A stretch of DNA of 64,000 nt. Origin: Acutalibacteraceae bacterium. GTDB taxonomy: Bacteria; Bacillota_I; Bacilli_A; RFN20; CAG-449. Every line of letters begins with the position of its first letter. Position 1 is the first letter of the stretch. The translations under genes were made by a program, and so were the position numbers. Positions 13,854-41,597 of the stretch are shown here, one piece after another. The DNA lies in assembly GCA_963610315.1 (NCBI GenBank), contig CAVDMV010000001.1:77441-141440 (forward strand), given 5' to 3'. Under the pieces are notes generated by a model. It did no database searches. It had not been told where the DNA came from and saw nothing but the letters and a program-made list of their open reading frames with translations.

Positions 13854-16445
13854 TTAATCATTAATTCCAGGAATGATTGCTTCACGAGCTTCAGAACCAG
13901 GATTTTTATTTTTAAGTTTTGCTTCTTCCATCTTCTTTTTATTAATCTTTTCTCTATTGATTGAGAATGAGAAATGAATATGTTTAAAGAAGAATAATTG
14001 GCAAGGAAGAGCAAGAATGATTGTTGCAATATAACCAACTAATATTGTAATCGCCATCGCTCCATATGTTGAGAATACACTTGAAGTTAATGGTGAAGCG
14101 AATGCTACAACGAAAGTAGAAACTAAGGCAAATAAAGTAATTACGCTGATAATTCTAGTTTCAGAAGCTAATACATCATTCGCGATAATCGCTCTTTGTT
14201 CATAAGTACCAACTTTAATTTTATTTTCTCTTAATAAGACTTTATTTCTTTCATAGAGAGGAATTTGAATAATCATAACAACGATTAAGCCTGCTGCAAT
14301 ACCAGTTAATGATAAAGCAGACATACCAATTCTACTTGCTACGTAGAAAGAAATAGCGACTAATGAAGTTGGGATTAATGTAACTAATGTAGATAAACCA
14401 TATGTAATACCGTATCTAATTAATACGAATACAACTGATAAGCCTGCAAATAATGAAACAACAATAATCGCAGAAGTAGTTAAGTAATTAACACTTGAAG
14501 AAGTAACTTCGACAATTGCAGCTGTTACTTGATAATCTGCGGAAGAATAATTTGTATTTTCTTGAATAGTAGAAATTAAATTTGAATCATTGATTTGATC
14601 AATTTCTGAAGCAGTTAATGTTGTATTAAATGCGACAGATACATAAGCGACGTCATGTTTTTGAACTGTTGTATAATCTTCTGCTTCTGGTAAAACATCT
14701 TCAACAACTTTAATATCAATTGTATAAATCTTATTCGCGATACTTGGATATTTATTATCAAAGAAAGATTGTACATCTTCAGATTTTTCAAACATATAGT
14801 GTCCGCTTGAATTATCAACATAAGAAGACATTTCAATACGAGTATAAGTCTCTGAATCAGAAGAAACATTAAAGACATTAGTTGAAGGAATAATAATAAA
14901 TACTGCAATTAAGATAACACATAAACCAGAAATAACAGTTGCGACAATTGAATTTCTCTTTAAGTTCTTAACTGGATCAACTTTAGAAATAACTTTAGTT
15001 GTTTTTTCATCTAAAATACTTACTTTATTAGCCTTTACTCCAAAGATAGAAAGTTTTTCACTAGCTACCTTATTATGAGTTAACCAATACATTTCAAATA
15101 AAGTATATAAACGATTAACAATTAAACTGACACATGTACCAATTAATAATACTGCAGGGAATAATTTAGTTTGAGAAGAAACTGCATTAACCGCGATAAT
15201 TGTAATAAATAAACCTAAGACTGTAACATCAATTAAGTTAACTAAAGTAGATTTAGTTGCTTGTTGATTAGCTTTAATTGCAGTCTTAGCATTTTGTAAT
15301 TCACTCTTAAATTTAGTTAAATAAACAATGGCATAAGAGGTATTCATAATTAATGAAGCTAAGAAACCTAAGCTAACCATTGTTGTAAATGTATAACCAA
15401 AGAAATTAAATAAAATTAATTGGATGAATAAACTTAGTAAGATAGAAGTAAATGCTCCTAAACCTGCAAGTCTAAATCTTGCTACTAAATAGATTAATGC
15501 AACTAATGAACCACCGATAATACCATAGATAATAATATTTGTATAAGCATTACCTTCACTTGCTTCAATTCTTTGAGTATAAAGTCTTTTCATTGAATAA
15601 GTTGATGAACCATAGTTAATAATTCTTTCAACAGTATGAGCGGATTCAGCAACCATTTCTGTTTGAGTATAGTCATAAGCAGAAATTTTAAATGAAGCAT
15701 CTTGGTAATCACCATTCGCGTCTTCTGTATAAGTAAAGTTATCAGTAGGAACTAAAGCTAAGATTTTATCTCTAATTTCTTCTTGTCTTAAAGTTTCAGT
15801 ATCTTGATAAGCTTCAACATAAGAATCATTTTCAGTTTTATCAAGCCATAAGACCATAACACCAGTAATGTTGTTATTATCTTCACTTCCTGAATTATAT
15901 TTTTCCATGAACTTTTTATAAGCATCATTACATGTATCAACGAATTTCTTAAATTCTTTTGCATCCTTTAATTCGACTGAAACATAAGGAGTTGATGAAT
16001 TCCATTCAACGCTTGCGCTACCAATGACGAATGGTTCTTCCATTTCTAATGAATAATCAGCATCGTTAGAAAGTAAAGTTGAAACTGTAATTTTACCTGT
16101 AGCTTCAACTGATCTAAGAACATAGTCTAAATCAGTTTCTGTTTGAGCGTTCATCTTGATACGGATGAAGTTTTCATCTCCATCGCTAGATTTTTCAACC
16201 GCAACACTTGCGTTTTCAACTCCAGCATCTTCAATTCTACTAACAACAGTGTTACCAATGTCATTAATGTTGTTGTTATCAGAACCTAAGTCAACTTTAT
16301 ATAAAGTTTCATAGCCACCTTCATATTCAAGGCCTGAATTAATTTTTTCTCTTTGTGGGTTAAATCCACAAACAATGATCAATAATGTAGATATTATCAA
16401 TAATAAGAATCCATAGAATCGACGCATTTTCTTCCTCCTAAACAA
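13854..16445 (-). CDS. secDF: protein translocase subunit SecDF (fused SecD-SecF)
   Basis: 863 aa. An N-terminal TM is followed by a large periplasmic-type domain and then two RND-like six-helix bundles. Confidence 0.9.
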   Translation of the reverse strand: MFRRKKMRRFYGFLLLIISTLLIIVCGFNPQREKINSGLEYEGGYETLYKVDLGSDNNNINDIGNTVVSRIEDAGVENASVAVEKSSDGDENFIRIKMNAQTETDLDYVLRSVEATGKITVSTLLSNDADYSLEMEEPFVIGSASVEWNSSTPYVSVELKDAKEFKKFVDTCNDAYKKFMEKYNSGSEDNNNITGVMVLWLDKTENDSYVEAYQDTETLRQEEIRDKILALVPTDNFTYTEDANGDYQDASFKISAYDYTQTEMVAESAHTVERIINYGSSTYSMKRLYTQRIEASEGNAYTNIIIYGIIGGSLVALIYLVARFRLAGLGAFTSILLSLFIQLILFNFFGYTFTTMVSLGFLASLIMNTSYAIVYLTKFKSELQNAKTAIKANQQATKSTLVNLIDVTVLGLFITIIAVNAVSSQTKLFPAVLLIGTCVSLIVNRLYTLFEMYWLTHNKVASEKLSIFGVKANKVSILDEKTTKVISKVDPVKNLKRNSIVATVISGLCVILIAVFIIIPSTNVFNVSSDSETYTRIEMSSYVDNSSGHYMFEKSEDVQSFFDNKYPSIANKIYTIDIKVVEDVLPEAEDYTTVQKHDVAYVSVAFNTTLTASEIDQINDSNLISTIQENTNYSSADYQVTAAIVEVTSSSVNYLTTSAIIVVSLFAGLSVVFVLIRYGITYGLSTLVTLIPTSLVAISFYVASRIGMSALSLTGIAAGLIVVMIIQIPLYERNKVLLRENKIKVGTYEQRAIIANDVLASETRIISVITLFALVSTFVVAFASPLTSSVFSTYGAMAITILVGYIATIILALPCQLFFFKHIHFSFSINREKINKKKMEEAKLKNKNPGSEAREAIIPGIND

Positions 16446-18353: not shown

Positions 18354-19907
18354 CTATTTAGCATAAATACCAATAGTTGCTTTGTTATTTTCAATTGATT
18401 TAATTCGAATAGTATATTTTAAAGAATTACCATCATTAAATTTAAATTCACTTAATGAAGTAGTTCTAATAAAAGCATCGCTATTATAACTAAATGTAGA
18501 AGTTAAAACTGTTGTAGGATTCTTCTTTGAAACAACATTAATTAAATTGTTGTTCTTATTTAACATAACGCCGGTATTTGAATGAGCGATAGTTACATAT
18601 TTTGAATCTGGTATGTCACTAGGATATTCATGAATATACTTAAATGTTTTTAATTTAGTATCAACTAAACCTAAACGTGCATCGACATGATAAATTTTAA
18701 CAAATGATTTATCGATTAATTGATAAGAACCGTATTTATGTTGAACATCAAATTCATTTAATCCAGTTGGAGTATATAATTCAAGTAATAAATATTCATC
18801 AAATGGTGAATAAGAATAATCTAAACTTGATGAAGGAATAAGTAATGCGCTACCTCCATCTTCTAAAGAAGTAATTTCATAATCACCTTCAGAAGAAACT
18901 AAAGTAGGAGTTAACCAATTTAATTCATATTTAGAAAAAGCATTTTGATCACCAATATTTTGATCCATCATATCTAACTTACCAACTGGAGTAGTTGAAG
19001 AAGATGAATAATAATCAGATAAGCCTAATAAATGACCAAATTCATGAATAAAAATATGTCCATCAACTAGTAAGTTATTATTTTCATCTTTATATCCACC
19101 ATTCTTAAGATAATTATAGCTTAACCAAGTATAACTTGGGCAAGTTGGATTATCGATATTTGCTTCTTCTACATTAGTGACTGTATAAGCAAAAAGTGTC
19201 GTTAATAAATTATCCTTCATATTTGGAGTTAAAGTAGTATTATAGTAACTTTCATAATAAGAAATACAATCATTACCACTTCCATATGATTCATAATCGT
19301 TATTAGGGAAAACGATAGCTAATCCATCATAATATCCATCTTTATCAGAATCATAATTCTTCATTAAATCTGGATATTCTACTTTTAACCATGAAATAAC
19401 TTTATCTTTTAAATAAGTGATAGGATCACTATGAGAAGCAGTTTGAACATGTTCTAAAAGTGTAGTTCCAAGTGAACAATAATTAGTTACTGTTCCTTTT
19501 AAGCTAAATTTACCATAGCTTGATTTATGATAATAACTTGCTACACTTTCGTATCCAGTTGGATGAAGCGAATTAGGAGTATTAACGCTATCACCAAAGA
19601 AGACATTATAAATATCTTCCTTTGATTGTTCTTCATTAATACCTAATATTTCTGGAGTAAAATCAGTAAAATATACTGGAACTACAATTAATTCATTTTC
19701 GCCTTGTGAAGGAAATAAATGTTGATTTAATCCTGTTTTTATTTGCTCTAAAGTAATCTTTTGAAAATTATCTTTTTTTGTTTCACTTGAACTAGATTCG
19801 TTACTAGAAGAATCACTACTAGTTACACTTGAAGAAGACACCCCGTTACAAGAAAATAAAGTAATAGTAGCAAGTGTAACTAAAGCGTATGATAATATTT
19901 TTTTCAT
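18354..19907 (-). CDS. secreted lipoprotein, putative zinc metallopeptidase (HExxHxxGxxD, M6/InhA-like)
   Basis: Lipobox LFSC followed by a Ser-rich linker (SSSSVTSSDSSSNESSSSE). The zinc-binding motif HEFGHLLGLSDYY is present; 517 aa. Confidence 0.6.
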   Translation of the reverse strand: MKKILSYALVTLATITLFSCNGVSSSSVTSSDSSSNESSSSETKKDNFQKITLEQIKTGLNQHLFPSQGENELIVVPVYFTDFTPEILGINEEQSKEDIYNVFFGDSVNTPNSLHPTGYESVASYYHKSSYGKFSLKGTVTNYCSLGTTLLEHVQTASHSDPITYLKDKVISWLKVEYPDLMKNYDSDKDGYYDGLAIVFPNNDYESYGSGNDCISYYESYYNTTLTPNMKDNLLTTLFAYTVTNVEEANIDNPTCPSYTWLSYNYLKNGGYKDENNNLLVDGHIFIHEFGHLLGLSDYYSSSSTTPVGKLDMMDQNIGDQNAFSKYELNWLTPTLVSSEGDYEITSLEDGGSALLIPSSSLDYSYSPFDEYLLLELYTPTGLNEFDVQHKYGSYQLIDKSFVKIYHVDARLGLVDTKLKTFKYIHEYPSDIPDSKYVTIAHSNTGVMLNKNNNLINVVSKKNPTTVLTSTFSYNSDAFIRTTSLSEFKFNDGNSLKYTIRIKSIENNKATIGIYAK

Positions 19908-21361: not shown

Positions 21362-21664
21362 TTAATTATTTCCTTCGACTGGAACAACTGTTGCTTTAGT
21401 TCTTGATTTACCCCAGCGGACGAATTTAACAATACCATCGCATGTTGCGAAAATAGTATCATCTCCACCTTTCATAGTGTTAACACCTGGATAAATTTTT
21501 GTACCACGTTGGCGATAAATGATTGATCCTGCTGTGCAGAATTGACCATCTGAGACTTTACAACCTAATCTCTTAGATTCTGAGTCACGACCGTTCTTTG
21601 TAGAACCGACACCCTTTTTAGAAGCAAATAATTGAATATTTAATTTAAACATCATAGTTTGCAC
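21362..21664 (-). CDS. rpmA: 50S ribosomal protein L27 with N-terminal propeptide
   Basis: The L27 core ([17 protein letters not shown]) is preceded by an extension [14 protein letters not shown]|SKKG. This is the Prp cleavage-site type found in Firmicutes. Confidence 0.9.
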
Positions 21665-21676
21665 CTTCTTTCGTAT

Positions 21677-21970
21677 TTATTTTATTTTTATATATTTTGG
21701 ATAACTCTCTTGTATAGTTTGTAATTGAATAATAATTACTTCGAGAACTTTAAGTGATTCACTTTGTTCTTTAAGAATTACTTTAGCGTATCCACTTTCT
21801 AAAGTAACACTTACAATGTCATCTTTATTAAATGCATTGAAACCACCGGTAACTATACTTGATACTCCGGCACAGATAAGATCTTGGCCAGATTCGGCAA
21901 ATCCTGCATGTCCTTTTACTTCAAGTCCATAAGGTTTACCATCATGCGAAATCACATTAACTTGGATCAT
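21677..21970 (-). CDS. prp: ribosomal-processing cysteine protease Prp (YsxB/DUF464)
   Basis: 97 aa between rplU and rpmA. Conserved GHAGFAESGQDLICAGVS with His and Cys positioned as a catalytic dyad. Confidence 0.8.
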   Translation of the reverse strand: MIQVNVISHDGKPYGLEVKGHAGFAESGQDLICAGVSSIVTGGFNAFNKDDIVSVTLESGYAKVILKEQSESLKVLEVIIIQLQTIQESYPKYIKIK

Positions 21971-21975
21971 ATTAA

Positions 21976-22284
21976 TTAAGCATTAATTGATTCGATTGTT
22001 AAACATGTGTATGGTTGACGATGACCTTGTTTTCTACGATAGTTAGCTTTGCTCTTATATTTGAAAACTAAGATTTTCTTTTGTTTGTCTTGTTTTTCAA
22101 CTTTAGCAACTACTGTAGCACCTTGAACATATGGTGTACCAACGCTAGTCTTATCACCTGAAACAAGTAATACTTTGTCGAAAGTATATTCAGCACCTGC
22201 TTCAACATCTAACTTTTCAGTAAAGATTTTTTGACCAACTTCAACTTTAATTTGCTTTCCGCCAGTTTCGATAATTGCGTACAT
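21976..22284 (-). CDS. rplU: 50S ribosomal protein L21
   Basis: 102 aa beginning [11 protein letters not shown]. Confidence 0.95.
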
Positions 22285-22455
22285 AAATTTCGTTACCTCC
22301 TATTTTCTATAGACTTAGACTCGCTTTAAAGGTAGATTTTGACATCTTTAAAAAGACCTTTTCAATGCGGTTGAGGCCCTCTATAAGGCGACAACATATA
22401 TAAAATATCAAAAATAAAACATTAATTCAATAAAATATTTCATCTTTTCAATTTT

Positions 22456-23937
22456 TTAGTTAAGAATAGAGAGTAAATTAATTAAAAGTTCTTTACTAGT
22501 AACAATTAGAATAATATTTTCTCTCGCTCTAGTTAAGCCTTGATATAACATCTTGACGATAGGATATTTAGTGTCTTCTATCTCTTTTCCTTTTAATTCT
22601 CCATCTTCATAATAAAAATAAGAATTTAAAATCATCACAACTTTTTGAAAGTCTTGTCCGACTACTTCATTTGAATCTAAAATATTTAAATTATCTTCTA
22701 AGCTAGCATTCATTTGTTTAATAGGATAACGAATAAATGTATAATCTAACTTATTTAATTCTAATGCTCTTTTTATAGCCTTCTTTTCATTAGGTTCATA
22801 AATTATTGAGCAACTGTCCTTAAGAGGAATATCTTTATTAAAATTATTTAAGTTAAAGACGCAATCGATAAAAGAAATTACTTCTACATTTGATCTAATT
22901 TTATTAGTTAAACGATAATGTGTCTCTTTAGTTTCTTGAAGAATTAATGAAATGACCTTTTTGGCATTTTCACTATTAAAGATTACTTGATTCGCGTCAT
23001 AAGAAAATATGCATCTCTTACGATTATCTTTTATATATTGAACAATTTTAAAGAATTTTTCATAAGGATAAATTCTTTGCGTTTCATCAAAGAAAATATA
23101 ATCATATTTATCGAGAGTTTTTAAAGATACTTTATTTAATTCTTTAATCGTTAAATTTTCAATTTTTTCATTTAAAATTCTATGTCCTTCGCTTAATGCT
23201 TCAACATTAATAATTAATACTTTACCTTTAAATGAAAAATCATAAGCTAAATCATATAGAAGCAATGTTTTACCAGTTCCAGGTGAACCTGTTAAAGCAA
23301 AAACATTACGTTTATTTTGCTTAATTAAATCTTTTATCTTCTTTTTAATATCTCTTTGATGAGGAGTTAAAATGTATTTTCCTTCAATGAATTTCTCATT
23401 ATTATTTAATGGAGAAACTAAAATATTCTTTGGATTATAAATTTCATCTAAATTGACTGATTGATCAACTGGTAATTTTAAATATTCTAAAAGTTCTTCT
23501 TTAGTCGATTCAACAAGTGTCTTATCTACTAATTTATATAATTTATTTACAACACTTTTATAAGTAAAATGAACTGCATGTTTTTTGCCGATAACATTAG
23601 TAAAATAACGGTTTTGTTTTAATTGATCTAGTACCTTATTTAAAGATATATCTCCGCTTTTAAGTTCGATATTAATTATTGTATCAGAAGTTATTTTTAA
23701 TAAATCCATCTCTTTATTTAAATGTGGAACAACATAGCCAAAAATAAAACCTTCTACTAAAGAACAATTATCATTAATGCCTAAGAATTTTAATAATTTT
23801 TCGATATCTAAAATTTCATTATGATGATATTCACGTCCAGGATAAAAAGAACATAAATAAGAAACATAATTCTTAGAAATATCTTCTTCTTTTGAAAGTT
23901 TTACTAAATCATATAAAGATACTAATTTATAAGCCAT
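22456..23937 (-). CDS. SF1-helicase-like P-loop ATPase (DUF2075-type motifs) with an N-terminal PD-(D/E)xK-like domain; candidate nuclease-helicase
   Basis: Walker A ALTGSPGTGKT, Walker B YIFFDETQ, motif III-like SYDANQVIF, motif V-like VVGQDFQKVVMIL and motif VI-like YQGLTRARENIILI. The N-terminal ~190 aa carries EMDLLKI...IINIELK, which is consistent with hD...hhExK. Confidence 0.55.
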   Translation of the reverse strand: MAYKLVSLYDLVKLSKEEDISKNYVSYLCSFYPGREYHHNEILDIEKLLKFLGINDNCSLVEGFIFGYVVPHLNKEMDLLKITSDTIINIELKSGDISLNKVLDQLKQNRYFTNVIGKKHAVHFTYKSVVNKLYKLVDKTLVESTKEELLEYLKLPVDQSVNLDEIYNPKNILVSPLNNNEKFIEGKYILTPHQRDIKKKIKDLIKQNKRNVFALTGSPGTGKTLLLYDLAYDFSFKGKVLIINVEALSEGHRILNEKIENLTIKELNKVSLKTLDKYDYIFFDETQRIYPYEKFFKIVQYIKDNRKRCIFSYDANQVIFNSENAKKVISLILQETKETHYRLTNKIRSNVEVISFIDCVFNLNNFNKDIPLKDSCSIIYEPNEKKAIKRALELNKLDYTFIRYPIKQMNASLEDNLNILDSNEVVGQDFQKVVMILNSYFYYEDGELKGKEIEDTKYPIVKMLYQGLTRARENIILIVTSKELLINLLSILN

Positions 23938-23945
23938 AATTTCAC

Positions 23946-24860
23946 CTACTTATTCAATGAACAAAGTGCGATTGGACTTGTTTTTAAATAAAATATTTCA
24001 TTTTTATTCACTATTTCATTATATATATCTTTATTTGCTTTTGAAGCCCCGGCATTATTTAAAGCTTCCATCGGCGATTTATTAGAAACATAAAAAGTTA
24101 ATAAACCTAATTCGTTTCTTTTCTTAATAAGTGGTAAGATAATATCAGTTTTAATATTTGAATACATGCTTTCAAGCATAAAATTATCTAAGAATAAATA
24201 TTTTACTTTGGTCAACATTTCAAAATCAAATTCATAATTAGCCTTATTAAAACGATAATTATCTGATAAATCTTTAAAAAATCCTGAACAATCAATATAA
24301 GAAATATATTCATCTTTTAATGATAATGATAAGGATTTAGAAAAAACAGACATCATAAAAGTTTTGCCAATTCCATCTTCTCCATAAAGATAAATTCCTT
24401 TATTTAATTCAATTCCTTTAGCGATTTTTGCCATCTTAGTCACAACTTTAGTTCGATCACTAGCAAAATAATTTAATAATTCTTTTAAAGGATAATTAAA
24501 ATAGCTTTTATCAGTTTCACAAATGATGAATTTAGAAACGACGTTATCGTTTTCTAATTTAAAATTACAACGAGAAATAATTTCTTCTAATTTATTTTTC
24601 TTGTCATCGTAATAAAGTTTTAAAATAAAACCACCTTTTGAACAAGAATTTAACCCTTGGCAATTTTTACATTTTTCTTTATCTTTCATGACACGAGAAA
24701 AATAAGAAACATTTTTATAGACAAATTCTTCATTTAATGAATTCGCTTTAATAAAGTCAAACATCTCTTTATTTTCATAAACTTTTTTAAATGTTTCTTT
24801 TTTTATCTTTTCTATTTCATCATAGTCGAGATGAATAATGTCATCAATATTTACACTCAT
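23946..24860 (-). CDS. dnaI: primosomal helicase loader DnaI
   Basis: N-terminal zinc motif CKNCQGLNSC and AAA+ Walker A GEDGIGKTF; 304 aa, directly downstream of dnaB. Confidence 0.8.
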   Translation of the reverse strand: MSVNIDDIIHLDYDEIEKIKKETFKKVYENKEMFDFIKANSLNEEFVYKNVSYFSRVMKDKEKCKNCQGLNSCSKGGFILKLYYDDKKNKLEEIISRCNFKLENDNVVSKFIICETDKSYFNYPLKELLNYFASDRTKVVTKMAKIAKGIELNKGIYLYGEDGIGKTFMMSVFSKSLSLSLKDEYISYIDCSGFFKDLSDNYRFNKANYEFDFEMLTKVKYLFLDNFMLESMYSNIKTDIILPLIKKRNELGLLTFYVSNKSPMEALNNAGASKANKDIYNEIVNKNEIFYLKTSPIALCSLNK

Positions 24861-24861
24861 A

Positions 24862-26076
24862 CTATAATCCCTCGATTAAGGAAGATAAATCTTCTTTAGT
24901 CACATTTTCTTCACTTTCTTCAGTTTGAGAAGGAATATCAACATCGATTTTTTTACGACGAGAATTTTGTTTTAAATAATTCATCGCATCTAAGGTAGAA
25001 GAAATACCTTCTCTATTTAAACTCGCAGCAATTTTAGTAACATAAGTACGAGATAATTGGTTATTATTTCTTTCTAGGCAATAATCGATAAGGACATTTA
25101 TAACTGAAGAATTTAAACCATAACTTTCATTTAATTCAGTAATAAGTTTGACGTCACTAGGTGAAACTGCCCCGTTATTTTGTTTAATCTTTAAATAATC
25201 TAAAGCAGAATAAGTTTGCATCATTTCGACTTTTTTACCCATTTTACTAGTTGAACTATATGCGATATTATTTGAACCATTTTTTCTTAAAACTTGGTAT
25301 GATTTATCTTTTACACACAAATCTTTAACCATGTCGTAATCAATTTTTTCTTTTTCATCAGGTCGATATGATTGAGAAACATAATCTCCCATAATGTCTT
25401 CATTAACGCCGTAAAGTAAGGCGAGTTCAGAGATTTTTTTCATATCGCTTTTCTTAATAGCTTTAGGTAAAATATTTAAATTTTCTAGAGAAGATAAGAA
25501 TTTTGCATTATCAAATCCTTTTGATACATCGATAACTTTTCTACCATATCCTCCGACAATATTAAGAGTAGAAGAATAAACATCTTCATCTAAAGAAGAC
25601 TTAAATACATCATTAAAAGATGCACTTATTTCATTATAGCCATCTAAATCGAGCTTTTTAGTTTTATATCTTCTTAAATATTGTTGAACTTTCTTTTCAC
25701 CAATACGAGAAATTAATAAACCTTTAAAAAGAATATCATCAAAGAATTCTTTTGGTGTTTTAGGCGCGTATAAAACGAATTTTAAAAATGATTGGCCTTT
25801 ATCTTTTTTATAATAAGTTCTAATTAGACCAATACCTTCTAATTTATTTTTCGCTTCAGTTAAAATAGTAATATCGATGCCCATTTCTAAAAGAAGGTCT
25901 TCTAAAGATGCAATATCACTTTTCTTTTTATAATCAGCATATAGAGTTAGATATAAAGATATCGCGTGACTACCGACAATAGGTTGATAAAGCATAGTTA
26001 AAGTATCGTGATCAAAATCACTAATAATCGAATTTAAATATACTTCATAAAAATCTTCTTTGTTTAAATAAATCAT
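24862..26076 (-). CDS. dnaB: replication initiation/membrane attachment protein DnaB (Bacillus-type, DnaD-like domains)
   Basis: The N-terminal LTMLYQPIVGSHAISLYLTLY matches B. subtilis DnaB ITQLYQPLIGPVSVSLYMTLW. Confidence 0.8.
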   Translation of the reverse strand: MIYLNKEDFYEVYLNSIISDFDHDTLTMLYQPIVGSHAISLYLTLYADYKKKSDIASLEDLLLEMGIDITILTEAKNKLEGIGLIRTYYKKDKGQSFLKFVLYAPKTPKEFFDDILFKGLLISRIGEKKVQQYLRRYKTKKLDLDGYNEISASFNDVFKSSLDEDVYSSTLNIVGGYGRKVIDVSKGFDNAKFLSSLENLNILPKAIKKSDMKKISELALLYGVNEDIMGDYVSQSYRPDEKEKIDYDMVKDLCVKDKSYQVLRKNGSNNIAYSSTSKMGKKVEMMQTYSALDYLKIKQNNGAVSPSDVKLITELNESYGLNSSVINVLIDYCLERNNNQLSRTYVTKIAASLNREGISSTLDAMNYLKQNSRRKKIDVDIPSQTEESEENVTKEDLSSLIEGL

Positions 26077-41333: not shown

Positions 41334-41424
41334 TGGCGGAGAAACAGAGATTTGAACTCTGGCGGGGCTTTCACCCCCTAATGGTTTTCAAGACCATCCC
41401 CTTCAGCCACTTGGGTATTTCTCC
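41334..41424 (-). tRNA. tRNA-Ser (anticodon UGA)
   Basis: Minus-strand sequence GGAGAAATACCCAAGTGGCTGAAGGGGATGGTCTTGAAAACCATT...GGTTCAAATCT...CTCCGCCA. It has a long variable arm, anticodon loop CUUGAAA, and an encoded CCA. Confidence 0.85.
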
Positions 41425-41437
41425 ATGTTAATTAGTT

Positions 41438-41513
41438 TGGTGGACCCTGCAGGACTTGAACCTGCAACGACCCGTTTATGAGACGGGGGCTCTAACCATT
41501 GAACTAAGGGTCC
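41438..41513 (-). tRNA. tRNA with CAU anticodon, probably tRNA-Ile2 (lysidine-type) by resemblance to B. subtilis tRNA-Ile(CAU)
   Basis: GGACCCTTAGTTCAATGGTTAGAGCCCCCGTCTCATAAACGGG...GGTTCAAGTCC...GGGTCCACCA. G1-C72 is paired, so it is not an initiator. Confidence 0.7.
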
Positions 41514-41520
41514 TTATAAT

Positions 41521-41597
41521 TGGTGGCGGCAGAGGGGGTCGAACCCTCGACCTGCCGGGTATGAGCCGGCCGCTCTAACCAACTGGGCTACACCGCC
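41521..41597 (-). tRNA. elongator tRNA-Met (CAU)
   Basis: GGCGGTGTAGCCCAGTTGGTTAGAGCGGCCGGCTCATACCCGGCAGGTCGAGGGTTCGA...GCCGCCACCA, close to B. subtilis elongator tRNA-Met. Confidence 0.75.

Follow-up and report, generated by a model that had tools for sequence, protein, structure and literature searches.

An Nhi/AbiO-family nuclease-helicase gene fixed at the 3' end of the dnaB-dnaI operon in one gut bacterial genus

We analysed a 64,000-nucleotide stretch of DNA from an Acutalibacteraceae bacterium (positions 77,441 to 141,440 of the forward strand of contig CAVDMV010000001.1, assembly GCA_963610315.1; hereafter, the window) and found that the gene at 22456..23937 on its minus strand encodes a full-length member of the Nhi/AbiO family, a known kind of single-protein antiphage nuclease-helicase. 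The unusual feature of this gene is limited to its context: in one uncultured gut genus it holds a fixed, last position in the essential dnaB-dnaI operon. We consider it quite probable that the gene encodes an Nhi/AbiO-type antiphage enzyme that works on its own, and that the ancestor of the genus acquired it horizontally and its descendants have inherited it vertically ever since. An earlier note on this DNA, made from the sequence alone, had proposed either a defence gene lodged in a housekeeping operon or a replication-associated enzyme. Our data support that interpretation and favour defence, which, by analogy with the family, is likely to be the present function.

The gene is complete. 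Its open reading frame (ORF) begins with ATG, encodes 493 aa and ends with a TAA stop codon at 22456-22458, and no other ORF of at least 50 aa overlaps 22456..23937 on either strand. The PADLOC profiles for AbiO (E 7.3e-114, residues 5-493, profile positions 3-468 of 468) and Nhi (E 8.9e-112, residues 5-493, profile positions 3-470 of 470) both matched over their full length. The experimentally characterised Nhi protein SERP2475, as given in supplementary data to Bari et al. (bioRxiv 10.1101/776245), was 34% identical to the window protein over 455 aa (E 5e-53), and the Vibrio, Lacinutrix and pXO1 homologues were 30-33% identical. These matches bear out the Nhi-like nuclease-helicase layout proposed in the earlier note. 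Homologues tested for protection are 32-36% similar to SERP2475, and most of them protected (bioRxiv 10.1101/776245); at 34% identity, the window protein is within the range of the tested homologues. Identities between the window protein and the reference family proteins were 25-33% (32% for SERP2475), and those among the reference proteins themselves were 27-45%, so that by sequence the window protein is not an outlier among family members. At E <=1e-30, the family comprises 478 clusters (50% identity) among 1.84 billion representative proteins, with the clade of the window protein forming a single cluster. PADLOC or DefenseFinder would call the gene AbiO or Nhi, and the family assignment itself is routine.

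Two other assignments found no support. The earlier note had also mentioned NERD-helicase proteins, but a Pfam scan extended to E 1 gave no NERD match. It had further named orthology to a housekeeping helicase as part of the outcome that would count against its reading. We saw no such orthology to a named housekeeping helicase of superfamily 1 (SF1), such as RecD2, RecD or a PcrA-type enzyme: the NCBIfam scores for RecD2 (15.7 bits, cut-off 500) and RecD (15.9 bits, cut-off 310) were far below threshold and covered the P-loop only.

Residues 1-160 (23458..23937, on the minus strand, like all parts of the gene described below) form an N-terminal PD-(D/E)xK nuclease domain of the restriction-endonuclease fold. 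A Pfam scan gave no match for residues 1-190; the structural model of the N-terminal domain matched PD-(D/E)xK nucleases, with 3ijm as the top match and HsdR (3h1t) among the others. The same templates have been reported for AbiO (PMC13064643) and for Nhi, and 3IJM is the best structural template reported for the AbiO N-terminal domain (PMC13064643). The signature that had been proposed for this domain, EMDLLKI ... IINIELK, contains the catalytic motif E76-x-D78 ... E91-x-K93 (EMDLLKI...NIELK; 23659..23712). In an alignment of the window protein to SERP2475, the pXO1 homologue and the proteins from Vibrio, Lacinutrix and Staphylococcus aureus, a set that includes experimentally tested Nhi proteins, E76, D78, E91 and K93 are invariant. 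Between nuclease and helicase lies a conserved linker, LDEIYNPKNILVSPLNNNEKF (residues 161-190; 23368..23457), that is a signature of the family: D164, P169, N171, L173-N178 and F183 are each at least 90% conserved in an alignment of 84 sequences. The confidence of the domain model, given as the predicted local distance difference test score (pLDDT), is lower in the linker, at 58-61.

The remainder of the protein, residues 191-493 (22459..23367), is a helicase core of the SF1B/DUF2075 (Schlafen group 3-like) type, in agreement with the SF1/DUF2075-type core described in the earlier note. Pfam PF09848 (SLFN-g3_helicase/DUF2075) matched residues 211-361 at 34.2 bits, above its gathering score of 24. 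The helicase motifs that had been quoted were all present where they had been placed, on conserved columns of the family. In the alignment with tested Nhi proteins, most of the key residues are invariant and the others nearly so; in the 84-sequence alignment, conservation of the key motif residues is complete or reaches at least 90%. The Walker A motif GSPGTGKT (residues 217-224; 23266..23289) contributes the invariant residues G217 and G220-K223, and the Walker B motif, or motif II, FFDETQ (residues 282-287; 23077..23094) contributes D284 and E285, with the next residue, R288, also invariant. Motif VI, QGLTRAR (residues 466-472; 22522..22542), contains the invariant residues Q466, T469 and R470, and R472, which is at least 90% conserved. 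Two further motifs supply conserved family columns, YDANQ with D314 and Q317 and VVGQDF with G427 and Q428; D314 and G427, together with R348, are invariant in the alignment with tested Nhi proteins. An AlphaFold model of the full-length protein had a pLDDT of 88.8 and a predicted template modelling score (pTM) of 0.79, and its best Foldseek matches in the PDB were SF1B helicases (coronavirus nsp13, DSH9, SLFN11/14, RecD2, Pif1 and Upf1) at E ~1e-9. When PDB sequences were searched, using either the full-length protein or a profile built for its N-terminal domain, only P-loop matches or none came up, and no solved structure for the family was found by sequence.

We then placed the gene within its transcription unit. 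As the earlier note had described, only 8 bp (23938-23945) separate it from dnaI, and its neighbours are dnaB, dnaI and the rplU operon. The first gene of the unit is dnaB (24862..26076, minus strand), encoding a Bacillota-type helicase loading/remodelling protein (Pfam DnaB_2, 8e-13; NCBIfam DnaB, 1.2e-39), and after a single base it is followed by dnaI (23946..24860, minus strand), encoding the helicase loader. The NCBIfam DnaI score of the latter (1.1e-19) is below the cut-off, indicating a divergent DnaI. By sequence reading, a Shine-Dalgarno sequence, AGGTGA (23942-23947, minus strand), overlaps the TAG stop codon of dnaI and is followed 4 nt downstream by the ATG of the nuclease-helicase gene. 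On the other side, 171 nt separate the gene from rplU, which is followed by prp, rpmA and obg. This spacer contains a ribosomal protein L21 leader RNA (22307..22382, minus strand; Rfam RF00559, 38.5 bits, gathering score 36) that is near-invariant in four lineages, and that marks where a separate rplU-prp-rpmA unit starts. Ahead of the leader, sequence reading identified a probable rplU promoter, TTGAAT and TATTTT with a 17-nt spacer containing TG (22402..22430, minus strand). A simple consensus promoter scan did not list this site; TTGAA and TTGATATT are invariant in the four lineages, and the flanking bases vary. With the leader and a conserved promoter between it and rplU, the gene belongs to the dnaB-dnaI unit, as its last member, and not to the rplU operon. 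Simple scans of the interval between dnaI and the gene, and of the stretch just after the gene, detected neither a terminator nor any promoter-like site stronger than in shuffled sequence. We accordingly read the nuclease-helicase gene (X) as the final cistron of a dnaB-dnaI-X unit, and its arrangement suggests that it is co-transcribed with dnaB and dnaI. Since there is no terminator between the two units, read-through from the dnaB-dnaI-X unit into the L21 leader is possible.

Comparison of related genomes showed that X is fixed at this position. The order dnaB-dnaI-X-L21 leader-rplU was found in the window and in three congeneric lineages, in which X was 92%, 73% and 72% identical to the window protein and DnaI was 88%, 73% and 74% identical, and the same order was found in all ~30 contigs read that carry the dnaI of the genus, from many samples. 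All 15 orthologues that we extracted were intact (492-493 aa, without stop codons) and kept all 22 key residues. Ratios of nonsynonymous to synonymous divergence (dN/dS; Nei-Gojobori) were 0.08-0.27 for X, 0.05-0.21 for dnaI and 0.05-0.17 for dnaB, over dS values of up to ~0.9, showing that X is under sustained purifying selection. X evolves at the same pace as dnaI.

The earlier note had suggested a presence/absence check at the dnaI-rplU junction. The gene was present there in every congeneric contig read, and was absent after dnaI in the nearest outgroups, the DnaI proteins of which are only 33-37% identical. In the outgroup loci with a 33% identical DnaI (L017-L020), dnaB-dnaI is kept, and the gene order is thrS-glk-pyk-(pfk)-dnaB-dnaI, then yqfD, ybeY, cdd, era, recO, glyS and dnaG; in a 2-kb outgroup contig with a 37% identical DnaI, yabP follows dnaI. 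Because different genes lie 3' of dnaI in the outgroups, the 3' boundary of dnaI is a synteny breakpoint as well as an insertion site. In the window, the ~10 kb on either side of the gene encode RecJ, MscS, RuvAB, Obg, pyruvate kinase, glucokinase, ThrS and ATP synthase. The guanine-cytosine (GC) content (22-26%) and skew of the gene are like those of its neighbours, dnaI included, and neither GC content nor flanking repeats date or explain the insertion. The simplest account is that the ancestor of the genus acquired the gene horizontally, once, downstream of dnaI, and that it has since been passed on vertically under purifying selection.

To place the locus in the context of the family, we scanned one genome per species, which gave 504 relatives, and examined 80 loci encoding homologues, 77 of them outside the genus, with a profile scan of 141 neighbouring proteins. 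The 77 loci had no conserved partner gene, the largest cluster of neighbours occurring at only 12 loci, which argues for a single-gene system without an obligatory partner. The commonest neighbours at these loci were the subunits of type I restriction-modification systems (HsdR at 12, HsdS at 10 and HsdM at 9), and others included DUF3800 proteins, Schlafen AlbA_2 proteins, Fic proteins and AbiEii-like ATPases. By contrast with the window, tblastn found no dnaB, dnaI or rplU near any of the 77 genes, and the 25 most frequent Pfam families among the neighbours of homologues included no replication-loader family. Homologues were also found on 191 PLSDB plasmids (from Bacillus, Enterococcus, Lactococcus and others) and in four phage records, including those of Streptococcus phages Javan122 and Javan124. 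As a separate observation, a DUF3800 protein is encoded directly upstream of Nhi-family genes in four loci (e.g. L026:474-1307), and may be a subclade-specific partner.

From what has been reported for Nhi, we infer the enzymatic activities, phage trigger and defence phenotype of the window protein. The activities reported for the N-terminal domain of Nhi are metal-dependent 3'-5' exonuclease and nickase activity, subject to autoinhibition when the enzyme is full-length, and the enzyme is reported to unwind DNA bidirectionally (bipolar unwinding) in an ATP-dependent manner; mutation of either domain is reported to abolish immunity, accumulation of phage DNA to be blocked, and the phage single-stranded-DNA-binding protein (SSB) to set sensitivity. 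By analogy with SERP2475, the PD-(D/E)xK domain of the window protein would be a metal-dependent 3'-5' exonuclease/nickase, inactive within the full-length protein, and the SF1B/DUF2075 motor would act on DNA with single-stranded overhangs, binding and unwinding it. The targets would be replication intermediates of the phage, whose SSB would determine sensitivity, and the outcome would be degradation of phage DNA and an end to its accumulation. The ancestor of the genus would have gained the gene horizontally at the 3' end of dnaB-dnaI, after which it would have descended vertically, transcribed together with the helicase-loader genes and maintained by purifying selection.

Several observations weigh against a present function in antiphage defence. 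Of the four homologues tested by Bari et al., one did not protect (bioRxiv 10.1101/776245), and family membership is thus no guarantee of the phenotype. Among 80 other homologues, 136 columns are conserved to at least 90%, and the clade of the window protein differs at 37 of them; the clade-specific changes include H244N, G246E, H423N/D and loss of the HPNPD motif at 453-457, and such substitutions could reflect altered regulation or partners. SERP2475 is 606 aa long, as compared to 493 aa for the window protein, and has a C-terminal glyoxalase/bleomycin-resistance-like domain of ~120 residues that the window protein and most homologues lack: the alignment stops at residue 464 of 606 in SERP2475, and the window protein ends ~20 residues further on. 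This domain is poorly conserved in the Nhi family (bioRxiv 10.1101/776245). We observed no presence/absence polymorphism of the gene among congeneric strains. Defence genes usually vary in presence among strains. There is no integrase or mobile-element gene, restriction-modification gene or other defence gene within ~10 kb on each side, and no insertion repeats flank the gene, beside which we found only short AT-rich chance repeats. Hence, the gene lies outside the typical context of Nhi and AbiO (plasmid, prophage or defence island), a context that does not define the family.

Some of these observations could instead point to a host-linked role, in which a captured Nhi-type enzyme works with the DnaB/DnaI loaders, either as a domesticated replication/repair nuclease-helicase or as a guard. 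We think such an arrangement unlikely overall, although the tight coupling to dnaI, the complete fixation in the genus and the divergence of the clade at the 37 conserved columns would each fit it. If the enzyme had been co-opted for housekeeping, it would serve host replication or repair, for example at stalled forks or flaps and in conjunction with primosome reloading, and defence would no longer be its primary task. By contrast, none of the 77 other loci of the family is linked to dnaB or dnaI, the nearest outgroups do without the gene at this locus, the window protein lies no further from validated Nhi proteins than these do from one another, and it retains all residues required for the defence activities. 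Moreover, fixation in a small, little-sampled genus known from metagenome-assembled genomes is weak evidence of essentiality. We therefore regard co-option as distinctly unlikely.

As a guard of helicase loading, the protein would be co-expressed with DnaB and DnaI and would sense phage interference with, or hijacking of, the loaders rather than the phage SSB. Proteins that bind to the DnaI of the host are known from some staphylococcal phages, and the operon coupling to dnaB-dnaI, as well as the clade-specific substitutions, which could form a new interface, would be in keeping with such a role. However, other members of the family act as stand-alone genes without linkage to dnaI, and we judge a guard to be improbable. 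The atypical location is all that speaks for the last explanation, a remnant left by an old insertion, inert or in decay, that simply travels with the operon. With 15 of 15 orthologues full-length, 22 of 22 key residues kept, and dN/dS of 0.08-0.27 over dS of up to 0.9, the intact orthologues and purifying selection rule out a pseudogene, making this explanation extremely improbable. Antiphage defence by a stand-alone Nhi/AbiO enzyme is thus the reading that we favour.

The locus clearly exemplifies how a defence system of one gene, as a rule mobile, can become fixed and vertically inherited in an essential operon; here the gene is translationally close-coupled to the helicase-loader gene dnaI. 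The presumed targets of Nhi are intermediates of phage replication, and Nhi is presumed to be sensitive to phage SSB; coupling of its expression to a host replication operon could therefore help to show how such enzymes discriminate between host and phage replication. Were the enzyme to work with the loaders, the locus would document an antiphage nuclease-helicase wired into the core replication machinery, and it is a possible example of a defence gene acquiring a host role.

We also noted other features of the window. Between congeners, rplU (21976-22284) shows almost no synonymous divergence (dS 0.00-0.016), that of prp (21677-21970) is also low (dS 0.03-0.35, with 0.3-0.9 for adjacent genes), and the L27 protein encoded by rpmA (21362-21664) is 100% identical. 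The low dS of rplU and prp could reflect very strong constraint at the codon or RNA level, or recent recombination. The syntenic congeneric contigs have the DnaB/DnaI loaders, Prp and the L21 leader, at ~28% GC, a gene content that suggests a low-GC lineage resembling Bacillota. A predicted lipoprotein of 517 aa (18354-19907, minus strand) has an HEFGH zinc-protease motif and only a marginal match to Peptidase_M6 (immune inhibitor A); at 78-91% identity between congeners, its gene is among the faster-diverging ones of the block. An ORF of 863 aa (13854-16445, minus strand) has no Pfam match, and its position is conserved in the congeneric loci, where it is likewise unannotated. Three transfer RNA genes are clustered at 41337-41597 (minus strand).

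Other enzymes that combine nuclease and helicase resemble the window protein to different degrees. Dna2 and AddA/RecB, the nuclease-helicase fusions of replication and repair, differ from it in domain order, size and accessory domains; the likeness is in fold only, and NCBIfam profile and PDB sequence searches found no significant similarity to them. Schlafen group III/DUF2075 helicases are closer in the motor: the helicase core passes the PF09848 gathering score and Foldseek ranks SLFN11 and SLFN14 among its top matches, at an overall sequence identity of ~11%. Eukaryotic Schlafens have a different N-terminal nuclease domain, of the AlbA_2 type. The best PADLOC match, AbiO of Lactococcus lactis (Prevots & Ritzenthaler 1998; PMC13064643), has the same predicted architecture, and its Upf1-like SF1B helicase and N-terminal template 3IJM are likewise those found for the window protein. 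AbiO is plasmid-borne and was described as an abortive-infection gene with toxicity at high copy (PMC13064643); unlike AbiO, the window gene is chromosomal, fixed and within a core operon. Nhi and AbiO are mostly plasmid-borne or in defence neighbourhoods, and tools sometimes give one protein both names. Nhi of Staphylococcus epidermidis RP62a (SERP2475) has the same layout as the window protein, an N-terminal PD-(D/E)xK nuclease followed by an SF1B/DUF2075 helicase, and shares with it all nuclease and helicase motif residues; both are single-gene systems. SERP2475 and its relatives are typically found on plasmids or beside defence genes, whereas the window gene is the last gene of the dnaB-dnaI operon.
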